64,000 nucleotides of DNA, from the NCBI GenBank assembly GCA_035510735.1, contig DATKGN010000002.1:125118-189117 (forward strand). Reading direction: 5' to 3'. This document shows, one piece after another, positions 12,028 to 64,000 of this stretch (position 1 is the first letter of the stretch; each line of letters opens with the position of its first letter). Position numbers and translations under genes: made by a program. Origin of the DNA: Patescibacteria group bacterium (GTDB lineage Bacteria > Patescibacteriota > Microgenomatia > UBA10105 > UBA927). Under the pieces are notes generated by a model, which worked only from the letters and a program-made list of their open reading frames with translations, was not told where the DNA came from and did no database searches.

Positions 12028-12035
12028 ACCAAAGT

Positions 12036-12119
12036 TGTCATTGCGAGACCGTTCTTACGGCAAAGCAATCTCTCAAAAAATGAGATCGCCACGTCTCGAA
12101 GACTCGACTCGCGATGACA
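12036..12119. repeat. nested palindromic intergenic repeat, copy A (TGTCATTGCGAG...CTCGCGATGACA)
   Basis: 84 bp element between the thyA stop and the folA start; an 11-bp outer inverted repeat plus inner hairpins (ccgttcttacgg; gcaatctct/agagat); homologous to the copies at 48554 and 49533. Confidence 0.7.
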
Positions 12120-12124
12120 AAAAA

Positions 12125-13132
12125 CTAAAACCCACCAACAACAGTTATGTCACCTTTAATCGGCGGGTGCGGATCGTAGCCGACAAGCTCAAAATCCTCG
12201 AATTTGAAATCATCAATATTCTTCACCTTCGGATTGATTTTCATCGTCGGGAATGGCCGCGGAGTCCGTGACAGCTGCTCTTTACACTGATCAAAATGAT
12301 TTTCGTAGATGTGGACATCGCCGAACACATGGACGAAATCACCGGGTTTATAGCCCGTGACCTGCGCAAGCATCATGGTTAAGAGTGCGTATGACGCAAT
12401 ATTAAACGGCACTCCCAGGAAAAGATCCGCACTCCGTTGGTAAAGGAGTAAGGACAACCGGTCGCCGGTGATGTTGATGTGGTACATCGTGTGACACGGT
12501 GCAATGACCATAGAGGCGCTATGGCTCCCGCTCATCTCATAGATACATCCCGCATTCCACGCGGAGATCACATAGTGCTTTTTCATCGGGTACTTTTTTA
12601 TCTTTTCGATCGCCCAACCGAGCTGATCGACCGTACGCGTCCGAAAACCGGGCTTGCCCGCCGAAGCTTCAGCGTAGGTGGGCCACTTGCGCCACTGGAC
12701 GCCGTACACAGGCCCCAACTCTCCCCATTTCTTCAGGAACTTCGGATCGCTTTGGGCATTTTGCATAAATGTCTCAAACGGCATGGGCTTTGCTTTTTTT
12801 CCTGCCTGCGCAGGCAGGTCTTTCACCGCCCATTCGTACTTTTTGTACGCCCACTCGTCCCAAATGTGCACATTGTTGTCGACGAGATATTTGATATTGC
12901 TTGAACCCGAGAGAAACCAGATGAGCTCGTGGATAATACCGCGGGTAAAAACCTTTTTGGTCGTAAGAACCGGGAGGCCTTTTGAAAGGTCATAGCGGCA
13001 CATGCGGCCGAAGACGCTTTTGAGCTTTACGCCGGTCGAGTGGCTTATTTTCCATTTTCCGTTGTCCATGATGTCTTGCATGAGATCAAGATATTGGTAT
13101 TCGGGATGGGTGTGATTGGTTTTTGTAGACAT
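12125..13132 (-). CDS. thyA: thymidylate synthase (ThyA, long form)
   Basis: PCHTMYHINITGDRLSLLLYQRSADLFLGVPFNIASYALLTMMLAQVTGY active-site region; 335 aa. Confidence 0.95.
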   Translation of the reverse strand: MSTKTNHTHPEYQYLDLMQDIMDNGKWKISHSTGVKLKSVFGRMCRYDLSKGLPVLTTKKVFTRGIIHELIWFLSGSSNIKYLVDNNVHIWDEWAYKKYEWAVKDLPAQAGKKAKPMPFETFMQNAQSDPKFLKKWGELGPVYGVQWRKWPTYAEASAGKPGFRTRTVDQLGWAIEKIKKYPMKKHYVISAWNAGCIYEMSGSHSASMVIAPCHTMYHINITGDRLSLLLYQRSADLFLGVPFNIASYALLTMMLAQVTGYKPGDFVHVFGDVHIYENHFDQCKEQLSRTPRPFPTMKINPKVKNIDDFKFEDFELVGYDPHPPIKGDITVVGGF

Positions 13133-13255
13133 ATTTCCCCCTCGTGTTAAAAGCGCTTTCGTTCGTGGTGAAATTTTCTCGAATCGCAGCTCGCGAGATT
13201 GCCTATTTTAGTTGCTTCTCCTTGCTTAGCTCGGTTGCGCTCATCGAAAATTTTA

Positions 13256-13837
13256 TCACTCACCGCGCGAAATCTTTATTGTTTTCAATTCAGTTACGAT
13301 GGCCGTTACCCGAACATCATACGATGAGTGAGGGACTTCTGCAATAACCTGAAAATCATACGCAAGTCCAATTTTAGGAACGGCTATATCTCTCAGTAAT
13401 CGATCGTAATATCCCCTACCCCTTCCGAGGCGGTTTCCTTGTCTGTCAAATGCTATGCCGGGAACAATGAATAGGTCTATTGTTGATATGGGCACTATTG
13501 TGCCTGTATTCCTCGGCTCAAGAATATGGAAAACGCCGGGTGCAAGATCATCAAGCGTTGTGATTTTATAAAGACTCATGACGCTCTTCGAAATAACTTT
13601 CGGCACCACAACGGTCTTTTTTTGCAAAAGTAATGCAGTAATTATCTTCTTTGTATCAACCTCATCGGGAAGTGAAACGTAGGAACAAACAACATTGGCA
13701 TTAATTATTAAAGGAATGTGTATTAATCGCTTCGTTATTAAGTCATCTGCGCGTTTCCGCTCATGTGGTGTAAAACGACGATTCGCGAGCGTAATCCCTT
13801 TTCGTATCGAATCTTTCGCAGTGTGACTATCAAGCAT
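13256..13837 (-). CDS. 5-formyltetrahydrofolate cyclo-ligase
   Basis: GNRLGRGRGYYDR motif, size ~190 aa; start trimmed to M20 (MLDSHTAK) to avoid overlap with the upstream gene. Confidence 0.7.
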   Translation of the reverse strand: MLDSHTAKDSIRKGITLANRRFTPHERKRADDLITKRLIHIPLIINANVVCSYVSLPDEVDTKKIITALLLQKKTVVVPKVISKSVMSLYKITTLDDLAPGVFHILEPRNTGTIVPISTIDLFIVPGIAFDRQGNRLGRGRGYYDRLLRDIAVPKIGLAYDFQVIAEVPHSSYDVRVTAIVTELKTIKISRGE

Positions 13838-13847
13838 AAGAATGTTT

Positions 13848-14480
13848 TCACGAAATTGCCGTCCTCCGCTTTTTTGCTGATATAAATGAAGCAAGCTCAG
13901 CGATGCTAGCGGCGCCGATAAGAGCGCTCCACGCCAGGCGTCCCTGAAACATTACGTGAAGTGTAATTATCCACATGGTGACGTACGTGAGCGCATGGAT
14001 TTTATTCCACCAATCGCCCAGCCACTTCACGCTAAAATCATTGGATGTAATAAAAAGGAAAAAAAGCAATACTGCGGCAATAAGACCGAAGACCTCAAAG
14101 CCCCGTGTCGGCAGAAAGAATCCGCCCATCCCGATTGATGAAAATAACCAAACCGCAGACAGATGATTGATAACAAACATGAAAGAAGCAATACCGATGT
14201 ACCGCCGGAACATCATAAGGATTGAAATAAATTTATGTGATATTCCGTACCTCCGGGCCATGCCGGGGATCGTGGTTAAGATAAAGCAGATAATCGCCGC
14301 CTCAGCGCATTTTTTTCCGAGGGAATAAAACAGATCATAATTCCCCTGTAGAAGCACGAAGACGCGGTACTCGAAGTATAAGAATACGAGCTGAAGGACG
14401 TAAAATATCTGAAATAGTCGGACAATGGTATTTCGCCACGCAACGACGAAGCGGAAAAGAGCATTGATGAATGCATCCAT
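13848..14480 (-). CDS. ferric-reductase-like transmembrane heme-binding protein (MsrQ/YedZ family)
   Basis: 6 TM helices with conserved His in TM helices (FLFITSN...WLGDWWNKIHALTYVTMWIITLHV); start moved to MDAFINALF; no MsrP partner adjacent. Confidence 0.5.
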   Translation of the reverse strand: MDAFINALFRFVVAWRNTIVRLFQIFYVLQLVFLYFEYRVFVLLQGNYDLFYSLGKKCAEAAIICFILTTIPGMARRYGISHKFISILMMFRRYIGIASFMFVINHLSAVWLFSSIGMGGFFLPTRGFEVFGLIAAVLLFFLFITSNDFSVKWLGDWWNKIHALTYVTMWIITLHVMFQGRLAWSALIGAASIAELASFISAKKRRTAIS

Positions 14481-14485
14481 ATACC

Positions 14486-15022
14486 TTATTCTTCGGGCGG
14501 AGCCGGCTGTTCGAGCTGTTCGCCGGGTTTGAGCCAGTGGACGAACGTGCATCCGGTGGCAATTCGTTTCTCCCGGTCCCAACCAGATGTCGAACATTTT
14601 TTCATCCGTTTTCCTGCCGCAGTCGTGTAGAGAACGAGTTTGCTCCCGCACTCCGGACACTCTTCATCCAAAGCAACAGTCGTCCCGTTAATCCACTCGA
14701 TGTAATCGCAACCTGTTGCTTTTTTGGCGACTTTATCCCATCCGCCGGTAGAGCATTTCTTCATCTTTTTGCCGAAGCGTGTAACGACAAGGACGAGCGG
14801 ATTTCCGCATTTCGGACATTTCTCATCTAAGGGCTGTGGTGGCACCTCAAGCCATTTAACGTAGTCGCATCCTTCATTCTTTTTTGTCTCGGAATTCCAG
14901 CGGCCCGTGCTGCATCGCTGCAACCGTTTGCCGCTTGGAGTGGTCGTCACTTCACCGAGCGGGTTACCGCATTTCGGACACACCTCTGTACTGGGTTTAG
15001 AAGAACTGTCTGTTGTATTCAT
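14486..15022 (-). CDS. protein with three tandem topoisomerase-type C4 zinc-ribbon repeats
   Basis: Three ~55-aa repeats of CPKCG-x(n)-CS-x-GxW-x(n)-C-x-Y/F-x-W; 5-nt gap to the downstream MsrQ-like gene. Confidence 0.6.
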   Translation of the reverse strand: MNTTDSSSKPSTEVCPKCGNPLGEVTTTPSGKRLQRCSTGRWNSETKKNEGCDYVKWLEVPPQPLDEKCPKCGNPLVLVVTRFGKKMKKCSTGGWDKVAKKATGCDYIEWINGTTVALDEECPECGSKLVLYTTAAGKRMKKCSTSGWDREKRIATGCTFVHWLKPGEQLEQPAPPEE

Positions 15023-15064
15023 AATTTAGAAATCGTATCACAAATGAGAGGATGAAAAAATAGG

Positions 15065-16033
15065 TCATCTCACAAATTTCAGCATTTCTTCTATGATGGG
15101 ATAGACTTCTTCAGGTTTTTTTGTCTCCATGACGCGCATCCGCCACTGTGACGCTCCGTCAAATCCTCTGAGGTAGATTTTGAAAAACTTTTTGAGAATC
15201 GCATACGGCTTCTTTTTACCCCAAACTTCGGTAAAGAGTTCTATGTGGCGCCGCATGAGATTCATATGTTCACCGATTGAATGGGAAACGCCGGGATGTA
15301 TCCGGTCAAATGCCCACGGATTTTCAAAAATGCCCCGGCCGATCATAATGCCGTCCACATGATATTTTTTGACTTTGGTAAGTCCGTCCGTCGCATCGAC
15401 CACATCACCGTTCCCGATGATGAGCGTATTAACCTTCATCTGATTACGTATGGCCACTGCTTTCCCGATCTCATCCCAGTGCGCAGGAACCTTCGACATC
15501 TCGGCCGCTGTCCTCCCGTGAACCGTTAATGCCGCAATATCAAGAGATAAGAGAAACGAAATCCATTCTTCCGTTGCAATTGATTGAAACCCGATTCTCG
15601 TCTTCACGCTCACCGGAATCTTCCGACCTGCGCCTTCTTTTGTTGCAAGAATGATCTCGCGGCCAAGCGAAGGGTTTTTGATGAGCGCAGCGCACCCGCC
15701 GTGAGCGACCACTTTCTTCTCAGGGCACCCCATATTGATATCAATGCCGTCAAATCCGGCGCTAACCAATTCTTGCGCAGTTCGGTAATAATTTTCTGGG
15801 CGCTTTCCCCAAACCTGAGCGACAATCGGATGTTCACTATCTGCATATTTCAGGCGGTTGGCAACGACATCATGTCCCGCCGATTGGATGCCGTCGACGT
15901 TGGTAAATTCCGTAAAAAATATATCCGGACGGGCACATGAGGCGACGATCTGCCGGAACACGGTATCCGAGACATCCTCCATAGGAGCAAGGATAAATAT
16001 GGGCGTAGCAATAGTTTTCCAAATGGATTTCAT
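15065..16033 (-). CDS. dus: tRNA-dihydrouridine synthase
   Basis: IFILAPMEDVSDTVFRQI FMN TIM-barrel N-terminus; catalytic Cys region GCP; start moved to MKSIWK because the first 11 codons of the ORF track form a perfect hairpin (ccgatggct-gag-agccatcgg). Confidence 0.85.
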   Translation of the reverse strand: MKSIWKTIATPIFILAPMEDVSDTVFRQIVASCARPDIFFTEFTNVDGIQSAGHDVVANRLKYADSEHPIVAQVWGKRPENYYRTAQELVSAGFDGIDINMGCPEKKVVAHGGCAALIKNPSLGREIILATKEGAGRKIPVSVKTRIGFQSIATEEWISFLLSLDIAALTVHGRTAAEMSKVPAHWDEIGKAVAIRNQMKVNTLIIGNGDVVDATDGLTKVKKYHVDGIMIGRGIFENPWAFDRIHPGVSHSIGEHMNLMRRHIELFTEVWGKKKPYAILKKFFKIYLRGFDGASQWRMRVMETKKPEEVYPIIEEMLKFVR

Positions 16034-16204
16034 ATCCGTATTGAAGCTCCGATGGCTGAGAGCCATCGGACTCTTTTATTGTATATCAATCTGCTTCAGG
16101 GATCTTAAAGCTTCAAATCCCACGAAGCGGTATCAACAACGCTTCTACCGAGCGTGTATTGCCCTTCGGGATACCGCGTAGTGGGATTATCGCACAAATA
16201 GGCG

Positions 16205-32179: not shown

Positions 32180-34438
32180 TTATCCGAACGGAAAGTTATC
32201 CCCAGATTGAACAACCTTTTCGCGGCCGTTCCGTATAAGATGAACCATCCCAACGCCTAATACTTGAGACTCGTGCCGGGTCACATCGACGACGCATGCT
32301 GTTTGTTCATCAATCCCCAGTATCGTCATCCCGCCGGGCAACAGACTAACAAGCTTCTCAAACCGGCTGACCCCCATATAGCAGCGCGTCGTATCAAAGT
32401 CCTCCCCCTCCTGATTATTCCAGTGCGGGATAATGACCACGTTGGGAATCCATTGTTTAAACAGATTTATTCCCGCTATCCAATGCAGCTCCTCCCCTAC
32501 TTTAAATATTTCATAGACGGGAAGGACCTGCGCGCCCACGGCCATCGCGGTAGCTGACCCCAGACAGACGGTCATTCCGGTTTGAAACGCTTTTTCAATA
32601 TTGTGAGCCGCGCGCGAACCCTTGAGGTGCTTTACCGTATAACCGGGAGAACCGGCCCCGCAGTAGAGATAGTCTTCATGGAGAATTGAATCCACAGTTG
32701 CAGGATCATTTGTAGAATTTTGGCCGTCACAACGCCATGCACGAATTCTCGTAATCTCAGGCTTTATATTGATGAGTTTCGTCTTGAAAAATTGCTCCAT
32801 CCGCTCGGGCCACCCGTGAATCGCATTCACTTCAAAGCCTGTCGGTGTTTCAAGGATGCCGATCTTCACTCCGGCCGTTAATCCAGCCTGCTTTATTACC
32901 GTCTCATGAATTTTTCTTCCGGTCGGAGACATCTCGCCGGAGCCAAATAGGACAATTAGACCTGGTTCCCCGCGACGGAGTTTATCCTGAGCATTGCCGA
33001 AGGACTCGGGGTGAAAAATTGATTTGTTTGTCAATTTTTCATTTTTTTTTACGCGGATTCCTTGTGGAGTATCTTCAATGACGTACCCTTTGTCTTCAAT
33101 TTCGCGGCGGACGGCATCGGCATCGGCAAACCGTTTTTCCTTGCGAAGTGCTTCGCGCTTTGCCAATAAATCAGAAATTTCCTTTGGCACCGCAACTTCT
33201 TCGCTTTTGGCACTGGCAAGATCAAGTCCTAATACGCCATCGAATGATATGAGCAAATCATACCGCTCTTTTGGACTTAAGGATTGTGCCCGTATAACCT
33301 CCCAAACCACTGCAAGAGCTCTGGGAATATTTAAATTATCTTCGAGTGTTTCTTTGAATTTTTGTACGAATTCCTGCCGCAGCGGCGTCTGGTCTTTTGA
33401 TGCAAAAGATTCGCTTCTTAAGGCTGCGACAGCACTAATCAGTTCGTGTCGTGCGTTTTTGGACGCATCAAGCGCTGTCCAGGTGAAGTTGAGAAATGCC
33501 CGGTAATGTGCAGTCAGATAGAGATACCTAAGGTCTAACGGATCGTAACCCTTAGATTCAATATCTGCTAACCGGTAAAAATTCCCTTTGCTTTTGGCCA
33601 TCTTGGCGCCGTCAACCATGATGAATTGCCCGTGCACCCAATACCGCACAAACGGAGATTTGCCGGAAGCGGCTTCCGACTGGGCAATCTCATTGGTATT
33701 ATGAATGGGAATAAGATCAGCGCCGCCGGTGTGGATGTCGATCTGATCGCCTAAATGCTTTTTACTCATCGCGGAACATTCGATATGCCAGCCGGGAAAT
33801 CCCACACCCCACGGGCTCTCCCACTCCATATCCCGTTTCGGTCCTTTCGGGGAAAATTTCCAAAGGGCGAAATCGGTCGGATTCTTCTTCTGCGGATTTG
33901 GTTCTACGCGTGCGCCTTCCTTAAGTTCATCAAGGCTTTGACCCGTTAATTTTCCGTAGTCTTTAAATTTACTGGTGTCGAAATAGATCCCGTCATCAAT
34001 CTTGTAGGCGAATCCTTTAGAAAGGAGCATTTCTACCATAGCGATTTGCTCGGCAATGTGTTCGGTCGGCTTCGGCCGGACATCCGGGTCCAGGAGATTC
34101 AACTTCTTACTGTCCGCCAAAAACGCATCGGTGTAAAATCTCGCGATGTCCCACGCGGTTTTCCCCTCACGTTTGGCGCCCTTTTCCATCTTATCTTCAC
34201 CGCTATCGGAATCGGAAACAAGGTGGCCGACATCGGTAATATTGGAAACGTATTTAACCGGATACCCCAGGTATTTAATCGTCCGTACCAGAAGATCCGA
34301 CATTGTATACGTCCGGAAGTTGCCGATATGCGCATAGTCATACACCGTCGGGCCGCAGCAATAGACCGTTACCAATTTCGGATCTCTTGGAGTAAATGTT
34401 TCAACTTTTTTCCCTAATGTATTGAAGAGTCTGAGCAT
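32180..34438 (-). CDS. cysS: cysteinyl-tRNA synthetase fused to a ~290-aa C-terminal domain (peptidase S51/GATase1-like?)
   Basis: VYCCGPTVYDYAHIGN (HIGH), KMAKSKGN (KMSKS), Cys ligands; the CysRS core ends at about aa 465; the extension has GSGE and CLGSATAMA motifs. Confidence 0.85.
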   Translation of the reverse strand: MLRLFNTLGKKVETFTPRDPKLVTVYCCGPTVYDYAHIGNFRTYTMSDLLVRTIKYLGYPVKYVSNITDVGHLVSDSDSGEDKMEKGAKREGKTAWDIARFYTDAFLADSKKLNLLDPDVRPKPTEHIAEQIAMVEMLLSKGFAYKIDDGIYFDTSKFKDYGKLTGQSLDELKEGARVEPNPQKKNPTDFALWKFSPKGPKRDMEWESPWGVGFPGWHIECSAMSKKHLGDQIDIHTGGADLIPIHNTNEIAQSEAASGKSPFVRYWVHGQFIMVDGAKMAKSKGNFYRLADIESKGYDPLDLRYLYLTAHYRAFLNFTWTALDASKNARHELISAVAALRSESFASKDQTPLRQEFVQKFKETLEDNLNIPRALAVVWEVIRAQSLSPKERYDLLISFDGVLGLDLASAKSEEVAVPKEISDLLAKREALRKEKRFADADAVRREIEDKGYVIEDTPQGIRVKKNEKLTNKSIFHPESFGNAQDKLRRGEPGLIVLFGSGEMSPTGRKIHETVIKQAGLTAGVKIGILETPTGFEVNAIHGWPERMEQFFKTKLINIKPEITRIRAWRCDGQNSTNDPATVDSILHEDYLYCGAGSPGYTVKHLKGSRAAHNIEKAFQTGMTVCLGSATAMAVGAQVLPVYEIFKVGEELHWIAGINLFKQWIPNVVIIPHWNNQEGEDFDTTRCYMGVSRFEKLVSLLPGGMTILGIDEQTACVVDVTRHESQVLGVGMVHLIRNGREKVVQSGDNFPFG

Positions 34439-38636: not shown

Positions 38637-39551
38637 TTACCTTACCAGCGTTGAAATTGCATTGGCGATCAAAGGAGCGATAGAGACCGTATGCAACTTA
38701 TCGAATTTTTTGTCCCCGATGATATCAATCGAGTTGGTGACGATGATTTTATCAATCGGCGCATGGGACAACTTTTCAACCGCTTCACCGGCTAGTACGC
38801 CGTGAGTAGCAAGCGCGATCACACTTGTCGCCCCCGCCTGCCGGAGAGACTCAGCCGCCTGTACCGTTGTACCGCCCGTTGAAATAATATCATCGATAAT
38901 GATCGCTGTTTTATCATTGACGTCGCCTATGATCTGATAGGTTTCGCTCGTATCATGCTTATCCAGGAATCTCCGCTTTTCCATAACGACCATTGGAAGA
39001 TCAAGCGCATAGGCCAAATTGCGGGCACGCTTGACTCCGCCGACATCGGGTGAGATCACAACGCCGTTTTGAATGTTCATCTTCTTGATCTCGTCCGCTA
39101 ATACCTGAAGGGCAGAAATATGCATAACAGGGATCTGGAAAAATCCCACAATGGCATCATTATGAAGATCGACGCAGATAATCTCATCAAACATGCTGAC
39201 TTCCAAGAATTTCGCAATCACGCGCGCGGAGACCGGCTCGCCCAACCGATGGAGCTTATCCTGACGGGAATATCCCATATACGGGATAACGGCAATGACG
39301 GCCCGGGGCGCACAACGGCGGATCGCGTCTCCCATAAGGACCATCTCCATAATGTGCTCATCCATGGGGAAGGAAAAAGACTCAAGAACGATAACTGTTT
39401 TATCCCGTATATCATCCTGAATCCACGGCCGGAGCTCGCCATCCGCAAACCGCGTTAAGTCAACGTGACCAAGCGTTATATGGAGGGATTTTGCGACTTC
39501 ATGCGCAAGAGGTAAATTACTGGAACCGGCATACAAAATAAAGTCTTTCAT
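38637..39551 (-). CDS. prs: ribose-phosphate pyrophosphokinase
   Basis: 304 aa, PRPP-binding IIDDIISTGGT, DLHNDAIVGFF. Confidence 0.9.
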   Translation of the reverse strand: MKDFILYAGSSNLPLAHEVAKSLHITLGHVDLTRFADGELRPWIQDDIRDKTVIVLESFSFPMDEHIMEMVLMGDAIRRCAPRAVIAVIPYMGYSRQDKLHRLGEPVSARVIAKFLEVSMFDEIICVDLHNDAIVGFFQIPVMHISALQVLADEIKKMNIQNGVVISPDVGGVKRARNLAYALDLPMVVMEKRRFLDKHDTSETYQIIGDVNDKTAIIIDDIISTGGTTVQAAESLRQAGATSVIALATHGVLAGEAVEKLSHAPIDKIIVTNSIDIIGDKKFDKLHTVSIAPLIANAISTLVR

Positions 39552-41713: not shown

Positions 41714-43804
<2,091 letters not shown>

Positions 43805-45769: not shown

Positions 45770-46720
45770 TTACAGCTTTATCGTCGTTCCGAAATTCTCT
45801 TTATACCGTGCGATAAATTCTTTTTTTGTAAAATCATGAGTTTGCGTGCCGTATTTCTCGACCGTATAGACAGCGGCTACCGATCCCATCTGTCCGCACA
45901 CGGGAAGATCATACCCCCGTAAGTAACCGGCAACAAATCCTGCGCGATACGCGTCCCCGGCGCCGGTCGGGTCACTGATATTTTTTGGCGTTGCGGGTTT
46001 AATATGCATAGCATCATGGCGTGTCTCAATGATTGATCCTTTGGCTCCGAGCGTCGTCACAAGCACCGGCACCAAAAGGATAAGTTCCTCGTGACTGATT
46101 CCTATCTTTTCCTCAATAAGGGCGATTTCATAATCATTGCCGATAAGGATCTTTGCGTGTTCAATGCCGCGCTTCAATTCATCGGCAGAAAAATTGGCGA
46201 CTTGAAATGCCGGATCGTACATGTAGGGAAAGTTTTTCTGTGCGCATTCGAGGACGTATGTATTCATGGCTGAGGGTTCCGTCGCCGACAGGACAACGAA
46301 GGATTGCTTCGGCACTTTGGATATTGTCAGGTTTTTTGCAAACTTTGTAGCTCCTAAATAAAACGAACCGATCTGATTATCATCGCTATCCGTCATAACG
46401 AAATACGAGCTGGTTGAGACGTGATTGTGGAGGGAAATATATTTCGTTGATATCTTATGCTTCTTCAAGTGACGCTCATACAACTCGAAGTCTTTCCGGC
46501 CCGCAGGCGCTAGAACCCATGGCACGACTCCTAATATATTGAGCGTATAGGCAATGTTGCCTGCGGTACCGCCGAATTGTTTATGGAGGCGGTCGACAAG
46601 AAAACTCAGCGAAAGGCTATGGATTTTATCCGCCATGATGCGGTCTCCAAACCGGCCGCTGAAATCCATGATGTAATCGAAGCTGATCGTTCCGGTGACA
46701 ACGACGTGAATGGGCGGCAT
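45770..46720 (-). CDS. PfkB-family carbohydrate/nucleoside kinase
   Basis: DPTGAGDAYRAGFVAGYLRG signature; start trimmed to MPPIHVV. Confidence 0.8.
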   Translation of the reverse strand: MPPIHVVVTGTISFDYIMDFSGRFGDRIMADKIHSLSLSFLVDRLHKQFGGTAGNIAYTLNILGVVPWVLAPAGRKDFELYERHLKKHKISTKYISLHNHVSTSSYFVMTDSDDNQIGSFYLGATKFAKNLTISKVPKQSFVVLSATEPSAMNTYVLECAQKNFPYMYDPAFQVANFSADELKRGIEHAKILIGNDYEIALIEEKIGISHEELILLVPVLVTTLGAKGSIIETRHDAMHIKPATPKNISDPTGAGDAYRAGFVAGYLRGYDLPVCGQMGSVAAVYTVEKYGTQTHDFTKKEFIARYKENFGTTIKL

Positions 46721-46721
46721 G

Positions 46722-46988
46722 TTACTGTCCCATCGACTTTGAAAGTTCGGCAAGCTTGCCTGCGGCAGCTTGTTGCGAACGTTTGATAGCATCGTTAATT
46801 GCCTTAACCATATCCGGCTGATACACGCCGTCTACCTCAACGGTTTTGACGTTCTGATTGCCGGTAATGACAATACGGACATTCCCCGTAATGACCTCAA
46901 ATTCTTCTTTCTCAAGCGCCTGCTGGATTGCCATCGCCTGTTTCCGCATGGCATTCATGTCGCCTAATGCCTTAAATGGATTCATCAT
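46722..46988 (-). CDS. ybaB: nucleoid-associated protein YbaB/EbfC
   Basis: 88 aa, MRKQAMAIQQALE...VEVDGVYQP pattern; lies next to dnaX. Confidence 0.85.
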   Translation of the reverse strand: MMNPFKALGDMNAMRKQAMAIQQALEKEEFEVITGNVRIVITGNQNVKTVEVDGVYQPDMVKAINDAIKRSQQAAAGKLAELSKSMGQ

Positions 46989-49636: not shown

Positions 49637-49825
49637 CTATCCTCTGTTTGGATGTCGAAGTCTGCGCGCTAGTTCGCGTTTTTTCTCCTTACGGACTTCC
49701 GCTGGCTTCTGATAAAATTCACGTTTCTTGAGATCCTGTAAAATTCCCTCGGCGAGAACTTTGCGGGTAAATTTTCGGATCAATGAATCGGATGAATCTC
49801 CTGGTTGTGCTTTAACAAATACCAT
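49637..49825 (-). CDS. rpsU: 30S ribosomal protein S21
   Basis: KAQPGDSSDSLIRKFTRKV... basic C-terminus; start chosen at ATG (MVFVKA) rather than the upstream GTG. Confidence 0.8.
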   Translation of the reverse strand: MVFVKAQPGDSSDSLIRKFTRKVLAEGILQDLKKREFYQKPAEVRKEKKRELARRLRHPNRG

Positions 49826-49842
49826 AAAAACAAACACCCCCT

Positions 49843-49960
49843 CTTAGAAACACTTAGCGAATATGAGTGAGCTTAGTGTTTCTTAGACCCGCCGATTACG
49901 CGCTCTTTGGGACGTGTACGAATAGTACTGAAAAGTCCCAAAGGAAGCGTAGGCGGGCTT
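49843..49960 (-). promoter_or_regulatory. structured rpsU 5' leader / HIT 3' region (two hairpins)
   Basis: A 17-bp imperfect hairpin TCTTAGAAACACTTAGC...GCTTAGTGTTTCTTAGA directly 5' of the GAGGGGG SD-like element, plus a nested stem (CCCGCC..CTTTGGGA-loop-TCCCAAAG..GGCGGG). Confidence 0.4.
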
Positions 49961-49986: not shown

Positions 49987-50319
49987 TTACAGATTTCGAT
50001 GTTTATCAATTGACCCTATGATATGGATGTGGACATGGCGTATTAATTCGGCTCCTCCGCCGTTATTCACGATGCGGTAGTTTTTTATCCCATGATCATG
50101 AATCATTTGTCCAACAACCTTCATCGACGTTGCAATTTCAGATGAGGAAAGTGCCGTAAAATCGGCTATATGAGCCTTCGGGATTACTAACAGATGGACG
50201 GGAGCCTGCGGGTGGATATCCTTTATGACAATTGTATCTGTGTCCTCAAATATGAGCGTCCGGGGTAGCTTCCCCGCTATAACGTCACAAAATACACATG
50301 TATCCGGCATATGAGCCAT
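49987..50319 (-). CDS. HIT-family protein
   Basis: Histidine triad HVHIHII. Confidence 0.8.
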   Translation of the reverse strand: MAHMPDTCVFCDVIAGKLPRTLIFEDTDTIVIKDIHPQAPVHLLVIPKAHIADFTALSSSEIATSMKVVGQMIHDHGIKNYRIVNNGGGAELIRHVHIHIIGSIDKHRNL

Positions 50320-50349
50320 GAACTATGAGCTATGAACCATGAACGAAAA

Positions 50350-50832
50350 TCATAATTTATAGCCGATCGTTCGCAAAAATTCTTTCCTCTTTTTTTCTTC
50401 TACTTTCGATTCCGTGCCTTTGGGCGTCCCGCCGTCAATAACACCCAAAACTCCCCTCCCTAGTTTTGTTTCAGCGACAATGACCTCCGTAGGATTTGCG
50501 GTCGCACAAAATATCGTGACGACCTCAGAAACATTTTTAATGGCAGAGAGAACATTAATCGGAAACGCATTTTCAAGGAAAATGAAAAATGTGTGCCCGG
50601 CGGCTACAGTGAGGGCATTTTTCGCGGCCAAATCAATCATCGCTTTATCCGTTCCGCTTGTTCGCACGAGCTGTGGGCCCGATGCTTCACAAAAAGCCAA
50701 TCCGAACTTAATGCCCGGAACACTTTCGGCCAAGGTCTCATGAAGATCTTCAACGGTTTTGATGAAATGTGACTGACCAAAAATAAAGTTTTTGGCCTCA
50801 GGATTGTGAACAGCAATATTTTTAATATCCAT
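50350..50832 (-). CDS. hypothetical protein; possibly adenosine-specific-kinase-like family
   Basis: ~160 aa; the assignment is a low-confidence recollection of family size and N-terminus only. Confidence 0.3.
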   Translation of the reverse strand: MDIKNIAVHNPEAKNFIFGQSHFIKTVEDLHETLAESVPGIKFGLAFCEASGPQLVRTSGTDKAMIDLAAKNALTVAAGHTFFIFLENAFPINVLSAIKNVSEVVTIFCATANPTEVIVAETKLGRGVLGVIDGGTPKGTESKVEEKKRKEFLRTIGYKL

Positions 50833-50885
50833 ACATTCCCTCCCTATAAACACTATCGTATTATCATGTTAACATGTTAATATAC

Positions 50886-55463: not shown

Positions 55464-56588
55464 TCAACCACCCTGGGCCAACCTGAGAATATCGTGTATT
55501 GAAATAAGAACGACCAGAGCCAAGAGTATGAGCATCCCAATCTGATGGGTCGAACGCTCAAACGCGGGGGCGATTTTCCGCCCTAATATTTTTTCAAGAA
55601 ATACAAATAGCACACGGCCTCCATCAAGCGCGGGAATCGGAAGAACGTTTAACACCGCCAAATTTAATGACAAAAGACTCATAAACTCCAGAACCGCGCG
55701 GAAACCGAACTTAACCGCCTGACCGGTTACTTGAGCTATCCCGATCGGTCCTGCTACATCTGCGCCCACCGGCTTTAACTGTGCCACCTTCACGATAAGA
55801 CCCCAGATACCGGTAAACATATCACCCGCCCGCGCCACGTTTTGTTTTACTGCGACCCACGGCGCGCGCGATAACGGATACGTCTTAAACTCCAAGTCCG
55901 AAACTGCAACACCCATCGGCCCCTCCCCTGCCGGAAACGTTTTACGCGGAACCAACGAGACCGGAAATGTCGAACTGTTCCTCACGATAGTAAAAGTTAT
56001 AGACTCGCCTTCATGTGCGTGGGTAAACGTCACTAAATCACTGGGCACAATGACGCTCTTTGTTTCACCACTTACACCTAAAGGCGAGTACGTTACGCGT
56101 GTGATGATATCGTTTTGCTTAATGCCGGCGGCGGCGGCCGGGCTTCCCGCGACAACACGTTCTATATGGACCTGACCAGTGGTTTCATAAACGCCTTGCG
56201 TCAAAAGATATGTCGTAATGCCAACGGCCAATAGAAAATTCATGGTCACACCAGCAAGGAGTATCGCGACGCGTTCCGTTTTACTCCGTGCCCAGAAATA
56301 TTGAGAAAGTGTCTGTTTGCTCGACCCTTTGCCCGCCGAAGCCTTGGCGGAGGGCGGGTCATCATCTTCTCCGGAGAGCTTCACAAACCCGCCGATCGGA
56401 AGCCAATTAATGGAGTATATTGTTTTCCCTATCTTTTTCCCCCAAATCCGGGGCGGCAATCCGAACCCGAATTCCTCAACGTGGACCCCTATGAGTCGCG
56501 CAACCGTATAATGGCCAAGCTCATGAACGAATACGAGGATACTGAGAATAATGAAAAATACGACAATGGTGATAATAGTGGTTATCAT
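55464..56588 (-). CDS. rseP: RIP metalloprotease RseP (site-2 protease)
   Basis: HELGHY zinc motif in TM1, PDZ domain, LDGG motif; start trimmed to MITTII. Confidence 0.85.
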   Translation of the reverse strand: MITTIITIVVFFIILSILVFVHELGHYTVARLIGVHVEEFGFGLPPRIWGKKIGKTIYSINWLPIGGFVKLSGEDDDPPSAKASAGKGSSKQTLSQYFWARSKTERVAILLAGVTMNFLLAVGITTYLLTQGVYETTGQVHIERVVAGSPAAAAGIKQNDIITRVTYSPLGVSGETKSVIVPSDLVTFTHAHEGESITFTIVRNSSTFPVSLVPRKTFPAGEGPMGVAVSDLEFKTYPLSRAPWVAVKQNVARAGDMFTGIWGLIVKVAQLKPVGADVAGPIGIAQVTGQAVKFGFRAVLEFMSLLSLNLAVLNVLPIPALDGGRVLFVFLEKILGRKIAPAFERSTHQIGMLILLALVVLISIHDILRLAQGG

Positions 56589-56664
56589 AAAAACAATATA
56601 ATGACCTGATGAAGCTATTATCCAATGATTCGGAGGTAGAAGTAAATAGGGATTAACTAAACTC

Positions 56665-57228
56665 TCACACCTGGAGAAGTTCTGCTTCTTTCTTTGCGCC
56701 GATTGCGTCAATTTCAGCAATCATCTCGTCCGTCATCTCCTGAACAAGTTTATCACCGTGCTCCTGTTGATCCTCTGAAATGGTTTTTTCATCGGCCTCT
56801 TTCTTCAGGTTTTTCATCGCCTCATGCCGTATCTGCCGTATCATGATGCGCCCGCCTTCAAGTTTGGCTTTTGCTAATTTCGTATATTCGAGGCGCCGTT
56901 CCTCCGATAATGGCGGAAGTGAAATCCGGATGATCTCTTTATCAATAACCGGGGTTAGGCCGCTACTTCCGGCTAAGATGCCCTTTTCAATTTCCGCTAG
57001 TTGTGATGGATCGTATGGTGATATCACAATCGTTTTGGCATCCATTGTCGAAATGGTCGCCATCTCCATGAGCCTCAAGTGCTGGCTCCCGCCATAGGAC
57101 GCAATCATAATATTTTCAACAAGTGCGGGAGTGGCGCGACCGGAACGAATCGTACTTAAATCCTGATTCGTGACCTCGAGGGCTTTTTTCATGTGGTCAC
57201 GCGTTCTTTGAAGTATTGTGTCAACCAT
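56665..57228 (-). CDS. frr: ribosome recycling factor
   Basis: 187 aa, typical RRF sequence. Confidence 0.9.
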   Translation of the reverse strand: MVDTILQRTRDHMKKALEVTNQDLSTIRSGRATPALVENIMIASYGGSQHLRLMEMATISTMDAKTIVISPYDPSQLAEIEKGILAGSSGLTPVIDKEIIRISLPPLSEERRLEYTKLAKAKLEGGRIMIRQIRHEAMKNLKKEADEKTISEDQQEHGDKLVQEMTDEMIAEIDAIGAKKEAELLQV

Positions 57229-57298
57229 TGCTGTAGGTATCTTACCCGCCTCCTGCCTTGAATGTCAAGAACCGTATAAGATCCAGGTCAGTTGAACG

Positions 57299-58288
57299 TT
57301 AATATCGCTTCGGAATAATAAGTTTATTATCAGATATCGCCCGCGTAACCGACCTAAACCTGCCGTTATTTCGGGCGTCATTCAGCGTCTCCGGGGTCTC
57401 ATCTTCTCCGAATATATGGAAAAAATAATCATGATCAAAATAGTAACGCACAACCTGTAGAAATGAATCGTAAGACGTATTCGGCAATGATAAAAGATAA
57501 TATTTACCTGAACCTGATTCTTTTGATCCTGTCTTTACATGGTCGATGAATGTCAGAGTTAAACCGCTTTTTTGAGCAAGTTTCTCGGGGTCATCATTTG
57601 AGCCAAAGTGATATGAGTTAAAAATACTTATGAACATATTCCGCTGCCAAAACGTTTCTTCGCCCTTCATAAATGCGAGTGTGTCTACGGTATTATGAGG
57701 GTCATTCTTCGCGGATTCGATTATCGAGAGACCAGAGTCAACTTTTATCAGGTTAGCATTATCATACGGCGAATCCTTAAGGGTAAAACGCACATAATTG
57801 ATGAGCCAACCGGCGACCAGTTCACCTGTTTTATACCGACTCATTTCGTACCGTGCCGCCGGGTTCCGGTCTGAAGAAAAAATCACATAGTCACCATCAA
57901 GTATTTCGTTTGCTTGGTGTGAGGTCAATTCATTCCGATCAGTAGTCGCCCATAAGAATATCGGCAACAGGTCCTTTGCGACTTTGAGTAAGCGAAGCTT
58001 AGCACGAATCTGAGGCCCGTCGATATACGGAGAGCTTATCGCCTCAACCGCTGTTTCTGCATTTTCATACATTACGCGCGCGTTGAACTTGTCCAACAGG
58101 TCTGCCTTTTCAAAAATTGAATGAACGAGTGTATTGCTTTCGTAGTTATCTCCGTTAGGATCAGACAAGTCACCCCGGACAATACCGATATCATGCGTGT
58201 GATTTGTTGCACCGTGCTCGAATAGTGTTCGTGCAAAAACTTGAGGATTTGTAGTTGAAGAATACTTTTCTACCGCACCTAATGCCAT
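57299..58288 (-). CDS. hypothetical protein (329 aa) occupying the position of pyrH
   Basis: ORF between tsf and frr; it lacks the Gly-rich amino-acid-kinase-fold motifs of UMP kinase. Confidence 0.5.
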   Translation of the reverse strand: MALGAVEKYSSTTNPQVFARTLFEHGATNHTHDIGIVRGDLSDPNGDNYESNTLVHSIFEKADLLDKFNARVMYENAETAVEAISSPYIDGPQIRAKLRLLKVAKDLLPIFLWATTDRNELTSHQANEILDGDYVIFSSDRNPAARYEMSRYKTGELVAGWLINYVRFTLKDSPYDNANLIKVDSGLSIIESAKNDPHNTVDTLAFMKGEETFWQRNMFISIFNSYHFGSNDDPEKLAQKSGLTLTFIDHVKTGSKESGSGKYYLLSLPNTSYDSFLQVVRYYFDHDYFFHIFGEDETPETLNDARNNGRFRSVTRAISDNKLIIPKRY

Positions 58289-58314
58289 ACGATTTGTACG
58301 TTTCCGGCAGGATC

Positions 58315-58770
58315 TTATTCCCCCAGCGCCATCCGCGTAAAGCGTGCTATGGTAATATTTTCCCCGACCTTTGCGATCGTCTGTTTGACGAGTGCTTCGA
58401 TCGTAAGCTTCGGATCACGGATATATTCACTTTTCAACAGGATTTTGACATCCTTGGGATTCATGGACGCAACCTGCAGGGCCAACTCATGCGTCAAGGT
58501 TTTAAATGCATCGGTCCGTGCCACGAAATCGGTTTCACAGCGGACTTCAACAAGGACGCCGACTTTCCCACCATGGACATAGGATTCAATAAGCCCTGCT
58601 CCTGTTTTGCGGTCTGCCTTCTTCGCCGCTTTTTCGACGCCGCGGGCGATAAGCAATTTTTTCGCCTTTTCGTAATCGCTGTTTGCGTCTTCAAGCGCCT
58701 GTCTGCAGTTCGACACACCTGCCGATGTTTCGGCCCGTAGTTTTTTCAGTAAATCAAGTGATATCTGCAT
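58315..58770 (-). CDS. tsf: elongation factor Ts (short form)
   Basis: UBA-like N-terminus LLKKLRAETSAGVSNCRQALEDANSDYEKAKKLL, single core subdomain, 151 aa. Confidence 0.85.
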   Translation of the reverse strand: MQISLDLLKKLRAETSAGVSNCRQALEDANSDYEKAKKLLIARGVEKAAKKADRKTGAGLIESYVHGGKVGVLVEVRCETDFVARTDAFKTLTHELALQVASMNPKDVKILLKSEYIRDPKLTIEALVKQTIAKVGENITIARFTRMALGE

Positions 58771-58772: not shown

Positions 58773-59702
58773 TTATTTCCCCGCTTTCTTTGTGACTCCT
58801 GGTTTAGCCAACTCGGGTGCCGCTTCCTTTTTTACTTCAACTTTGGCTGCGGCGGCTTTCTTCGCCATTTTCTCTGCCTCGCGTTTTTGCTCTTCTTTTA
58901 ATGACAACACTTTTTTAGCATCTTCATCCTGTTTTTTCTTTGCTTCTTCAGCTTTTACTCTGAGCTCCTCATTTTTTACTTGTTCTTCTTCCTTCCGCCT
59001 GTTAAGAATATCTTTGCCTTCCTGATACGCTGTGGCTATGTAATGAACGATATAGGTAACCGAACCGACCGCATCATCGTTTGCAGGAATGACGTAATCA
59101 ATTCCTGTCGGATCTGAATTGGTATCAACGACACCGACAACCGGAACTACACGCCGCTGTGCTTCACGAACAGCAGCAATTTCTTTACGAGTGTCTACGA
59201 CAAATAATACTGCTGGCACCTGCATGAGGTGAAGTACTCCGCCATAATATATTTTTATCCTACTTAAATACCGTGCCATCTTCGTTTGTTCGTGCTTGGG
59301 AAATTTTTTCCACGCGCCTGTTGCCTGTTCATCGGTCATCCGGTTAATTTTCTCAATATTTTTCCGGATCTGGTCCCAATTCGTTAAAAATCCGCCGATC
59401 CATCGTTCGGAAAAATATGGCGCACCGACTGCTTCGGCTTCCTGTTGCAAAATTCCCCGTGCCTGGCGCTTCGTCCCGACAAACAATACCTCACCCCCGC
59501 CTGCTACCACGGATTTAATATGTTCTCCCGCCGCCTCAAGACCTGCTTTGGTTTTGGCTAAATCAATAATGTGGATTCCGTCTTTCTCGGTATAAATAAA
59601 TTGGGACGCTTTCGGGTGCCAACGCTCAGATTTGTGGCCAAAATGACAACCCGCTTCAAGTAATGCCTGTAGTGTAATTTCTTGCATAATTATATTTGTC
59701 AT
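58773..59702 (-). CDS. rpsB: 30S ribosomal protein S2 with a K/E-rich C-terminal extension
   Basis: Conserved S2 core (HFGHKSERWHPK...), ~70-aa lysine/glutamate-rich tail. Confidence 0.9.
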   Translation of the reverse strand: MTNIIMQEITLQALLEAGCHFGHKSERWHPKASQFIYTEKDGIHIIDLAKTKAGLEAAGEHIKSVVAGGGEVLFVGTKRQARGILQQEAEAVGAPYFSERWIGGFLTNWDQIRKNIEKINRMTDEQATGAWKKFPKHEQTKMARYLSRIKIYYGGVLHLMQVPAVLFVVDTRKEIAAVREAQRRVVPVVGVVDTNSDPTGIDYVIPANDDAVGSVTYIVHYIATAYQEGKDILNRRKEEEQVKNEELRVKAEEAKKKQDEDAKKVLSLKEEQKREAEKMAKKAAAAKVEVKKEAAPELAKPGVTKKAGK

Positions 59703-60028
59703 TCCCGCGTAGGCGGGAATCTCCTCGCTATCCTCCTTCGCTCAAATTCGTCTTGTGGTTTACATCCACACATCCGAATGTTCGCTTCGGCGGATTGATC
59801 ATATCTAAACTCTCCCTCGACAAACTCGGGATCGTTAAGCTATGAATCAAAAAAAGCACCGATACGCCGGTGCTTAAACCTTCTTGCGTATCTCTTTAAA
59901 CAAACACTCAATTGCCCTTCGACTCAGCCGGAGGGAAGAGATAGCTTATTGAGTGCGATAATGAACGTATTATACGGTCAAATCAAATTATTTGCAATAC
60001 AGTACATAGTACGGTATTGTAAGCTCAT

Positions 60029-60497: not shown

Positions 60498-61820
60498 TTA
60501 CGGAACGGGAAATTTTCTGGCAAACAGTTTCACCTCGCGCCCTATTCGCAACAAATTTTTATTCTTCCATAATTCAACCTTCACTTGCTTTACGAACGCG
60601 CTTCGTTCTTCCTTGGCCTCCGGCAACCGGTAATGAGAAACTTCACAGACAACCTCATAAATCCACGCACTAATCGTTTTCATATCTTCCTCTTTCATGC
60701 CCCGCGTCGTCAAAATCGGCGTCCCCAAGCGGACTCCTGACGGATACATCGGCGGGTTCGTATCGTGCGGCACCGTGTTGTAATTAGCCACAATATTGGC
60801 CACCTCCAACGCTTCCGCAACGATGTTGCCTATGACCTTCTCCTTGCGTAAATCTATAACGATCAAATGACTATCCGTGCCGCCGGTCGTTAACGTCAGG
60901 CCTTTGGCCGTTAGCCCCGCGGCTAAAGCTTTGGCATTTTTCACGATCTGGTGGCCGTATTTTTTAAACGCAGGGGTTGCCGCTTCTTTCATGCAGACGG
61001 CGATAGCTGCTGACACATTATCATGCGGCCCACCCTGAAGCCCCGGAAATATCGCACGATCAATCTTTTTCCCCATATCCGCGTCTTTCTGCAATCCCTG
61101 GTCGGTAACGAGAAGGACGGCTCCGCGGGGACCCCTCATCGTTTTGTGTGTCGTGAACATGACGACATCAACATACGCTACGGGCGTCGGATACGCGCCG
61201 ACTGCCACCATGCCGGCAACGTGAGAAATGTCAGCTAAAAGAAAAGCGCCCACGGAATCGGCAATGGCTTTCCATTTTGCCCATTCTAGAACCCTCGGAT
61301 ATGCAGTCGTTCCGATTGCCATCATCTTCGGTTTTTCTATTTTGGCAAGAGCTGCCACTTTATCCATATCAATCCAACCGTCCTGCTCAACATCAAACTG
61401 CGCGGAAGTAAAATATTTGCCTGAAAACGTGACATTTGGATGTCCGTGCGTCAGATGCCCCCCGCCGGAAAGCTTTAATCCCATGATTTTGTCACCGGGA
61501 GCAAGAAGCGCGAAGTACACGGCGGCATTCGCCGGTGATCCGGAATATGGTTGCACATTGGCGTGGGGCACACCAAACAGTTTCTTTGTACGCTCTACGG
61601 CAGTTAATTCAATTTCATCAACAAACCGGTTCCCCTGATAATACCGCTTATTGGCGTATCCTTCTGAATATTTATTGGTAAGAATACTTCCGAGTGCTTC
61701 ACGCACTGCGGCCGATGCATAATTTTCACTGGGGATCATTTCAAGCACATCTCGTTGTCTCTTATCCTCTAAGTCAATGAGTTTCGCAATTTGCGGATCT
61801 GTTTGTTTTAATGTCTTCAT
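60498..61820 (-). CDS. glyA: serine hydroxymethyltransferase
   Basis: PLP-Lys region TTHKTMRGPRGA, 440 aa. Confidence 0.95.
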   Translation of the reverse strand: MKTLKQTDPQIAKLIDLEDKRQRDVLEMIPSENYASAAVREALGSILTNKYSEGYANKRYYQGNRFVDEIELTAVERTKKLFGVPHANVQPYSGSPANAAVYFALLAPGDKIMGLKLSGGGHLTHGHPNVTFSGKYFTSAQFDVEQDGWIDMDKVAALAKIEKPKMMAIGTTAYPRVLEWAKWKAIADSVGAFLLADISHVAGMVAVGAYPTPVAYVDVVMFTTHKTMRGPRGAVLLVTDQGLQKDADMGKKIDRAIFPGLQGGPHDNVSAAIAVCMKEAATPAFKKYGHQIVKNAKALAAGLTAKGLTLTTGGTDSHLIVIDLRKEKVIGNIVAEALEVANIVANYNTVPHDTNPPMYPSGVRLGTPILTTRGMKEEDMKTISAWIYEVVCEVSHYRLPEAKEERSAFVKQVKVELWKNKNLLRIGREVKLFARKFPVP

Positions 61821-61950
61821 ATGTAGTCTCCTTTAATAAAATAACGTACGGGCAGAAATAATAAGCAAAACGAAGGTAATGAAGAAGATGTTAGATCATA
61901 CAATTACACTTATAATAGTGTATCTATTTTCCCTTTGCAAGAAAGAAATA

Positions 61951-63036
61951 TCAGAGGGTATAATTGGCGCCGGGATCACGTATCACAATGCTGTGCGGGT
62001 GACTTTCGATGAGACTGGCTGGCGTTATCCGGACAAACCGTGCTTTCGCTTGGAATTCCGCCATTGTCTTGGCGCCGACATAATAAAATGAAGAACGCAA
62101 AGACCCCGTCACCTGGTCAAAATAATCCGTAACGTTTCCTTTATATGGCACCAAGCCTTCGACACCCTCCGATATGAGTTTCTTCTGCTCTGTCTCTTTC
62201 GATTGCCCATACCGCTCGGCACTCCCCTTTTTCATGGCGCTCACTGATCCCATGCCTCGGTATTGCTTGTACTTTGCGCCATTAATTATGGTAACTTCAC
62301 CCGGAGATTCGTCATATCCTGCGAGCAAGCTCCCGAGCATGACGGCGGCGGCTCCTATCCCAAAGGCTTTGGCCATATCGCCGATTTGGCGTATTCCCCC
62401 GTCAGCAATAATGGTGACGCCAGTCCCCTTTGCCGCTTTCACGGCTTCGGCAATAGCGGTCAGCTGCGGCACACCCATACCAGTGATAATACGGGTTGTA
62501 CAGATGCTCCCCGGGCCCATTCCAACCCGCAGGATATCCGCGCCTGCATCAATTAACCGTTTGGCGCCGTCATATGTGGCAACATTACCGGCCATAACAA
62601 CTACATCCGAAAAACGTTTTTTAATCAACTGGACCGAATCGACAACAAACTTCGTATTTCCGTGACCGGAATCGACAACCAATACGTCAACCTTCGCGTT
62701 CACAAGAGCATCAACCCTGGCTTCCAAGTCGGTGCCCGCGCCAACTGCCGCTCCAACTTGGTAATTTTTCTGTTTTACACCGGAAACCTGCTTCGCTTGA
62801 TCATCGATTGATAAATTTCTGTGAATAATCCCAAGACCACCTGCTTGCGCCAGGACCACTGCCATGGTTTCCTCAGTAACCGTATCCATCGGAGAAGAAA
62901 TGATGGGGAGTTTTAATTGAAGCCGCTTATGGAGTTTCGTTGTCAGATCGACATCCGCACGTTTAAAATCCGTATAGCCCGGCAGAAGTAGTACGTCATC
63001 GAATGTAATTCCCTCTTTCGAAATTTTATCCTCCAT
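61951..63036 (-). CDS. IMP dehydrogenase/GMP reductase family protein (no CBS domains)
   Basis: 361 aa, catalytic Cys loop [14 protein letters not shown] barrel; could be GuaB (CBS-less) or GuaC. Confidence 0.85.
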
Positions 63037-63045
63037 ATTGCCTCC

Positions 63046-64000
63046 TTATCGCACAAATGTCGCCTCGAGTGCCGCCTTCGTACATGCCGTAATGTCAGAA
63101 ACGGTCATGATATGCTTATCCAGTAACAATTCAAATTCTTCCCTAACGCTTGTCCCCAACAACTCAGGCCCGTCAGAGTTGATGGTAAGCGGCACATGGT
63201 GCGTGAGAAGTGTTTGAATAACTGTTTTCATCTCTTCCCAGGTTTTGACGGCACTAGTCTGAAGATTCGAGAGCGGACAAACCTCAAGTGTAATCTTCTC
63301 ATCACGTAAATATTCCATTAATTTGGGATCATCAACACAGCGGATACCGTGGCCTATACGGTCCGGGGATAATGTTTTAATGACTTCCCACATCTCCGCG
63401 ACTCCCGTCACCTCACCAGTATGGATAGTAATTTTCACTCCCGCTTCACGGGCTATCTTTACGGCACCGACAATATCGCTCACACGAAACGAGGAGGTTA
63501 TCGGCCCTGCGATATCCAGCCCGACAACGCCTTCAGGAGCAAATTTCGCGGCTTTTCCGGCAATAATTTCGTTTTGTTCTTTGGTAAACCGCCGGTCCAT
63601 CATGAGAATGAGTCCCGCGCGGACGGGATATTCCATACACGCCCGTTTGATACCCACGACCGCACCGAAAATGATCTTATCAAGATCCTGCTGCCCGCTC
63701 CTGTTCCGGAGCATCGGATTAAACCGGATTTCCATCGTGCGCACATTCCCCTTCCGGTATGCACGACTCACAGCCTGATGGGCCGCCCGCTCAATTGCAT
63801 ATGTCGAAGACTGGATAAGTTCCGTAAGGTCAAAAAACTTGAGGTATTTGTCATACGTTATTTGTTCTTTGATGGTAATCGAATCGATGAAGGTAAAATA
63901 GTCTTTTTCCTTAAGCCGTATCCCCTGTTCGTGGGCAAGTTCCCAGAGAAAATGCGGCGTAGATGATGAACCCAAATGAAGGTGAAGATCGACAAGATTT
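63046..64000 (-). CDS. add: adenosine deaminase (partial, N-terminus beyond the window end)
   Basis: HTGE, GHGIRC, SDGPEL/DDP motifs; the HxHLDG N-terminal motif is missing, so the gene continues past 64000. Confidence 0.8.
   Translation of the reverse strand, partial: NLVDLHLHLGSSSTPHFLWELAHEQGIRLKEKDYFTFIDSITIKEQITYDKYLKFFDLTELIQSSTYAIERAAHQAVSRAYRKGNVRTMEIRFNPMLRNRSGQQDLDKIIFGAVVGIKRACMEYPVRAGLILMMDRRFTKEQNEIIAGKAAKFAPEGVVGLDIAGPITSSFRVSDIVGAVKIAREAGVKITIHTGEVTGVAEMWEVIKTLSPDRIGHGIRCVDDPKLMEYLRDEKITLEVCPLSNLQTSAVKTWEEMKTVIQTLLTHHVPLTINSDGPELLGTSVREEFELLLDKHIMTVSDITACTKAALEATFVR

Follow-up and report, generated by a model that had tools for sequence, protein, structure and literature searches.

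The locus of X

We analyzed a stretch of 64,000 nucleotides (nt) from contig DATKGN010000002.1 of a Patescibacteria group bacterium, referred to here as the window. Our subject is an open reading frame (ORF) within a cluster of translation genes that encodes a protein of 329 amino acids (aa), called X. It occupies positions 57299-58288 of the minus strand, begins with ATG, is intact, and has no assigned family. Its locus tag is VMR81_01025, in the database entry of a Patescibacteria-group metagenome-assembled genome. A first-pass annotation, made from the window sequence, had placed X in the order rpsB, tsf, X, frr, with rseP immediately downstream, and had proposed that it replaces pyrH, the gene for uridine monophosphate (UMP) kinase. 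The minus-strand order rpsB, tsf, X, frr, rseP is borne out by the ORF coordinates and by Pfam matches of the neighbors.

The rpsB-tsf(-X) unit begins with rpsB (58773-59702, minus), which encodes ribosomal protein S2 (Pfam Ribosomal_S2, E = 4e-76; 304 aa in the public gene call). The upstream neighbor of X is tsf (58315-58770, minus), which encodes an EF-Ts of 151 aa (Pfam EF_TS, E = 3.5e-20) and is separated from X by 26 nt. On the other side, 70 nt separate X from its downstream neighbor frr (56665-57228, minus), which encodes the ribosome recycling factor of 187 aa (Pfam RRF, E = 3e-49). A promoter scan placed a sigma-70-like promoter for frr in this spacer (57239-57268, minus; TTGACA, 18-nt spacer, TAAGAT). 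Then follows rseP, encoding an M50 site-2 protease with a PDZ domain (Pfam Peptidase_M50 and PDZ). It spans 55464-56588 on the minus strand according to the public gene call of 374 aa, and the ORF is listed as 55464-56720. Further downstream, beyond rseP, are genes for a DUF5667 protein and an archaeal-type ProRS.

The X coding sequence was also found, base for base identical, in six other public assemblies (L001 to L005 and L017). Therefore, X is not an assembly artefact or a chimera.

The EF-Ts encoded next to X is short. Of the 204 positions in the Pfam EF_TS profile, its best stretch covers just 1-76. An EF-Ts of 150-153 aa is also encoded by relatives in which tsf is called in full, and the truncated form is therefore clade-wide.

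X has no similarity to UMP kinase

The canonical cluster is rpsB-tsf-pyrH-frr, and the window keeps rpsB, tsf, and frr in the canonical order and orientation. The first-pass annotation had noted that X has none of the Gly-rich motifs of the amino-acid-kinase fold and that no other pyrH is visible in the window, and both observations hold. The PyrH motifs (N-terminal K-x-G-G-E, G-G-G-N, and G-T-G-N-P) are invariant in our PyrH alignment (A4) but are absent from the alignment of the X family (A3). When the two alignments were compared with hhalign, the probability was 0.2%. X matched no Pfam or NCBIfam family at E cut-offs of 1 or 10, and for Pfam this held for all family members at E <= 10. As a positive control, the PyrH of a distant genome (L012) matched Pfam AA_kinase (PF00696; the NCBIfam counterpart for PyrH is TIGR02075) with E = 1e-35. 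On the Pfam and NCBIfam, hhalign, and fold searches, we rejected X as a divergent PyrH. Judged by its sequence, X is not a UMP kinase.

We also searched for a pyrH gene elsewhere in the 64-kb window, using three PyrH sequences and a hidden Markov model built from them as queries in tblastn, phmmer, and hmmsearch. None was found.

Our literature search found nothing specific on pyrH in the candidate phyla radiation (CPR) or in Gottesmanbacteria. Many Patescibacteria have been proposed to obtain nucleoside diphosphates from scavenged RNA via PNPase (bioRxiv 10.64898/2026.06.21.733656). A route fed by RNA in this way would make PyrH dispensable, which for the present bacterium is something that we can only infer. 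Nucleotide-salvage and one-carbon genes are abundant in the window, in agreement with an earlier remark about a salvage-dependent lifestyle. They encode ThyA, DHFR, 5-formyltetrahydrofolate cyclo-ligase, phosphoribosyl pyrophosphate synthetase, a PF04008 adenosine-specific kinase, a HIT protein, an IMPDH/GMP-reductase-like protein, adenosine deaminase, SHMT, S-adenosylhomocysteine hydrolase, and a PfkB kinase (positions 9503-16066, 38637-39551, 42506-43795, 45770-46792, 49987-50853, and 60498-63975).

The tsf-frr interval contains no pyrH across the clade

Comparison of the tsf-frr interval in related genomes, a check that the first-pass annotation had itself suggested, was done by gathering loci from genome and metagenome collections with Frr as the query and reading the flanks up to 10 kb. 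The closest named relatives are Candidatus Gottesmanbacteria. Eight distinct relatives (L007, L008, L009, L010, L018, L020, L021, and L025) have an Frr that is 70-82% identical to that of the window. In each of them, frr comes straight after tsf at a distance of 21-223 nt, with neither pyrH nor X between the two. They share a syntenic block that runs from an IMPDH-like gene through glyA, rpsB, tsf, frr, and rseP and on to proS. One of these X-less genomes (L025) came from the same sample as one of the contigs with X.

Among the clade genomes with readable sequence upstream of frr, pyrH was missing from that place in 11 of 11. Outside the clade, the canonical arrangement was seen in distant genomes, with a pyrH-like ORF called between tsf and frr in L011 and L012 and immediately upstream of frr in L014. 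The canonical cluster and the cluster of this clade differ in that the clade has no pyrH in the interval, and in the window the interval holds a gene unrelated to pyrH. The baseline of this Gottesmanbacteria-like clade is rpsB-tsf-frr-rseP without pyrH.

Because the relatives without X also have no pyrH at this place, pyrH left the locus in the common ancestor of the clade, before X and independently of it. The junction to which X was added was thus empty beforehand. The proposal that X replaces pyrH does not survive this comparison, since the interval contains no pyrH whether X is present or not and X has no kinase features. The first-pass annotation had offered an alternative, the insertion of an unrelated protein into the operon. 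This is supported by the eight relatives in which tsf and frr are adjacent and by a sister genome that has different genes at the same place (see below).

X occupies a variable slot

A sister lineage, represented by two independent assemblies (L006/L029 and L028), encodes an Frr that is 96% identical to that of the window, and its flanking sequences have 85-91% nucleotide identity. By blastn, homology between this lineage and the window stops exactly at the tsf stop (58315) and resumes at 57282, which is 17 nt beyond the X stop. The segment of the window without a counterpart in the sister genome or in the X-less relatives is therefore 57283-58314 (minus strand), made up of X, 26 nt upstream of it, and 16 nt downstream.

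We found an X homologue upstream of frr in one further genome, the basal relative L016, whose Frr is 65% identical. There, an X homologue (P0002) is followed by a second gene, Y, and then by frr. P0002 is clipped by the contig end and is 39% identical to X over 155 residues. Y is a 241-aa ORF (L016 529-1254) without a Pfam match. Its sequence includes RREFLK, a twin-arginine-like signal, and LQGC, a possible lipobox, and from these motifs we regard Y as a putative lipoprotein.

The slot of the sister lineage holds three things: the end of an ORF homologous to Y (BLASTP E = 1e-10), 64 nt left over from the 3' end of tsf, and a gene for a membrane protein of 495 aa that precedes frr. The last has more than 10 predicted membrane (hydrophobic) segments and no Pfam match. 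The tsf remnant (L028 443-506) is 90.6% identical to the corresponding sequence of the window and lies after the Y-like ORF, with no tsf coding sequence before it on these short contigs of about 2.8 kb (L028 1-2771 and L006 1-2768). A past integration at the tsf 3' end may have left this extra copy as its scar.

The slot thus has the defining property of a hotspot: the same core genes flank it, and among related genomes its content differs or is nil. In a neighbor-joining tree of Frr, X-less lineages stand between the two lineages that carry X, so several losses or lateral exchange are needed to explain the distribution.

We also looked for signs of mobility. No direct or inverted repeats flanking the X segment were found in the window. 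An 8-bp inverted match (TAAGATCC and GGATCTTA) was considered as an insertion scar and dismissed, because part of it falls in sequence native to the region upstream of frr in L028. Searches for an integrase, att repeats, and atypical composition returned no sign of mobility at X, and the tsf 3' remnant of the sister lineage is the sole hint.

X belongs to a family of four known members

We searched about 15 billion proteins for relatives of X. The searches comprised a word-indexed search of 5.8 billion protein clusters, an exhaustive HMMER search of 1.84 billion cluster representatives, and a search with a profile built from the first matches. The resulting family has four members: X, the L016 fragment P0002, P0003, and P0124. 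Homologues of X reached E values of 1.5e-24 and 1e-9. P0003 and P0124 form a second sub-family; each is about 300 aa long and shares 23-28% identity with X. Motifs conserved across the sub-families are RGD(L/V)S, GWLIN, DSGL, and DPxDT(V/I)DxxxFxxGxxx(F/Y)WxR. The ratio of nonsynonymous to synonymous substitution rates (dN/dS) between P0003 and P0124 is 0.28. Therefore, the family is under purifying selection.

P0003 and P0124 are in unrelated neighborhoods, where both adjoin a gene for a PF20603 hydrolase-like protein. Taken together, X does not reliably accompany tsf and frr: it is missing from eight relatives and from the slot of the sister lineage, and two of the four family members are elsewhere.

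In L024, P0124 begins 37 nt after a gene for a Gp49/HigB-like protein (PF05973) and an HTH_3 gene on the same strand. This arrangement recalls the TAC (toxin-antitoxin-chaperone) systems of Mycobacterium tuberculosis, in which higB and higA are followed by a third gene. However, the higBA pair of L024 is an insertion of ~710 nt (L024 436-1146) that is missing from the otherwise collinear L015, so toxin-antitoxin genes are not conserved partners of the X family. There are also no toxin-antitoxin genes beside X in the window, and X has no SecB-like features. We therefore rejected the family as the third component of a higBA system; the pair is secondary in L024 and is present neither in L015 nor in the window.

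A phage, plasmid, or defense origin was rejected as well. X had no PHROG or PADLOC match, its relatives were not found in viral contigs, tblastn against phage and plasmid records found none, and there was no significant BFVD match. X also had no significant sequence match in the PDB. Being unannotated does not make X unusual, since about a quarter of the scanned ORFs of the window have no Pfam domain.

Predicted properties of the X protein

X is an acidic, soluble protein with an isoelectric point of 5.5 and no predicted signal peptide or membrane segment. We built two AlphaFold2 (AF2) models, with X and P0124 as targets. Both are of low confidence, with a mean predicted local distance difference test (pLDDT) score of 53.5 and 53.9. 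In both, the N-terminal half is helical and the C-terminal domain is beta-alpha-beta-beta-alpha-beta, with a pLDDT of about 70-80 there. This arrangement may be ferredoxin/ACT-like, but the sequence identity of X to ACT/ferredoxin-like domains is 6-11% and there was no match to an ACT-family profile. For this comparison, the pLDDT of the model in the region is no higher than about 70. The fold is also very common and does not indicate a function. That the modeled domain might bind a small ligand or a partner protein is our best guess at a role, held with low confidence.

Transcription of X and frr

The frr promoter in the X-frr spacer is conserved in the sister lineage (L006: TTGACT, 17-nt spacer, TAAGAT). 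Because they have their own conserved promoter, frr and rseP are a separate transcription unit. The -10 hexamer ends just 10 nt before the frr ATG, and the spacing is the same in the sister lineage (57226-57268). With the -10 element this close to the ATG, the frr mRNA may be leaderless or nearly so.

A terminator scan of the 26-nt gap between tsf and X found no terminator-like site. Therefore, read-through from rpsB-tsf would be the simplest way to express X. The first-pass annotation had suggested that the position of X implies co-expression with the translation machinery. Co-expression is plausible, given the 26-nt gap and the lack of a terminator-like site, but it does not imply a role in translation, because relatives do without X, frr is served by a conserved promoter of its own, and two family members are located elsewhere.

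Other features of the window

Upstream of rpsB, a stretch at 59849-60000 (minus strand) is 83% identical to L008, compared with about 70% for genes, which makes it better conserved than the coding sequence around it. Within it are a sigma-70-like promoter (59997-59969), two 8-bp helices that could form a pseudoknot (CACUCAAU/AUUGAGUG and UAUCUCUU/AAGAGAUA), and, at 59875-59854, a terminator hairpin with a T-run. Across seven relatives, 90% of cells are paired, whereas sliding the pairing partners lowers this to 31-53%. Covariation is seen in the terminator, and there is one compensatory change in helix 1. The stretch had no Rfam match. From its predicted pairing, it is a candidate S2-responsive leader or attenuator of rpsB, or a candidate small RNA.

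Another conserved stretch (77-86% identity), at 49638-49843 on the minus strand, was first taken to be noncoding. This was dropped because the stretch is a small ORF of 61-66 aa (49637-49837), below the 70-aa ORF cut-off. It encodes a REFYQKP motif, by which we take it to be ribosomal protein S21 (rpsU). A CysRS-like ORF (32180-34438, minus) encodes 752 aa, and its Pfam CysRS domains stop near residue 460, leaving an unassigned C-terminal extension of about 290 aa. Across the 64 kb, no tRNA gene was predicted by ARAGORN, and every Rfam family stayed below its gathering score.

Discussion

In our preferred explanation, X, although genuine, is a dispensable accessory gene specific to its lineage, and the slot that it occupies between two core transcription units is variable and permissive. 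We put the probability of this at about 0.75. X would have arrived, or been differentially retained, by recombination in which the conserved flanking genes served as anchors, and it may once have been part of a two-gene X-Y cassette. It would be transcribed passively by read-through from the rpsB-tsf promoter. The protein would be cytoplasmic and would act neither on the ribosome nor on UMP.

The phenomenon itself is of a known kind, an orphan accessory gene at a variable junction. Flexible "islets" of accessory genes between conserved genes are an established concept in comparative genomics. The junction described here is like other hotspots flanked by core genes in having conserved syntenic flanks (rpsB-tsf and frr-rseP) and at least three different contents, and in being empty in most relatives. 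It differs from them in that the X site has no integrase, transposase, or tRNA gene, the cargo is just one to three genes, and the composition of X is near that of its host.

Several observations weigh against a dispensable gene in a variable slot. Both members of the sub-family that contains X (X and P0002) are upstream of frr, so a functional link rather than a hotspot is possible. The tree that separates the two X-bearing lineages is a neighbor-joining tree of a single gene, Frr. In the window, there is no mobility gene or att-like scar beside X. The G+C content of X is 42.6%, compared with 46.4 +/- 3.7 for the window, and its codon usage ranks 25th of 63. Because its composition is only ~1 standard deviation below the window mean, a recent foreign origin of X is not demonstrated. 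Finally, Foldseek searches with the models found no match at E <= 1e-3. This and the low confidence of the models make the assignment of the C-terminal domain weak.

One alternative is that a small element, integrative or recombining, has the 3' end of tsf as its target and carries X, alone or with Y, as cargo; in this genome it would since have decayed. The 64-nt tsf duplicate of the sister lineage is what might be expected of insertion into a gene end by an element that supplies a replacement end, and both the adjacency of X and Y in L016 and the patchy spread on the Frr tree fit such an element. However, none of the short contigs has an integrase or mobility gene, and the window has neither a tsf remnant nor flanking repeats, quite apart from the lack of viral, phage, and plasmid matches. 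The sister contigs are also only ~2.8 kb long, and an intact upstream tsf is not seen on them. We consider such an element unlikely. We give still less credence to X as a clade-specific translation-associated factor that acts with EF-Ts and RRF, for instance to make up for the truncation of the 151-aa EF-Ts. The short gap after tsf without a terminator-like site, the location of both sub-family members upstream of frr, and the shortness of EF-Ts on the Pfam profile would all suit that role. Even so, eight relatives with the same short EF-Ts do without X, and the sister lineage has other genes in the slot. The second sub-family adjoins the PF20603 gene instead (and, in one genome, a secondary higBA pair), and X has no significant similarity to any known translation factor.

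The remaining two explanations are weaker again. X could be a spurious or decaying ORF without function, as its lack of a known domain, its very few homologues, and the low confidence of its structure predictions might suggest. This is hard to reconcile with a 990-nt frame that is intact and identical in six other assemblies, with protein homologues at the E values given above, with motifs conserved across sub-families, and with a dN/dS of 0.28, and we regard it as highly improbable. A nonhomologous UMP kinase that displaced PyrH has only the position of X in its favor, which is the place of pyrH in the distant genomes L011 and L012, and it is essentially excluded.

A more speculative version of a translation link is that X is the founding member of a fast-evolving, CPR-restricted family that works with the translation machinery, its gene having been repeatedly lost rather than inserted. 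The location of both sub-family members just upstream of frr, and of X in this genome just downstream of a truncated EF-Ts, would suit this. A related idea is that the clade has no UMP kinase and would obtain UDP in another way, for example by phosphorolysis of scavenged RNA, a route put forward for other Patescibacteria (bioRxiv 10.64898/2026.06.21.733656). We think that this is a long shot.

The preferred explanation, an accessory gene in a variable slot, carries a lesson for annotation: a gene in the usual place of pyrH here neither substitutes for pyrH nor signals that pyrH was lost recently, because the tsf-frr junction of this clade had been empty before. It also puts on record an orphan family of four members and a companion gene, Y. 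For reduced CPR genomes, it shows that a small variable slot can exist within even the most strongly conserved cluster of translation factors.
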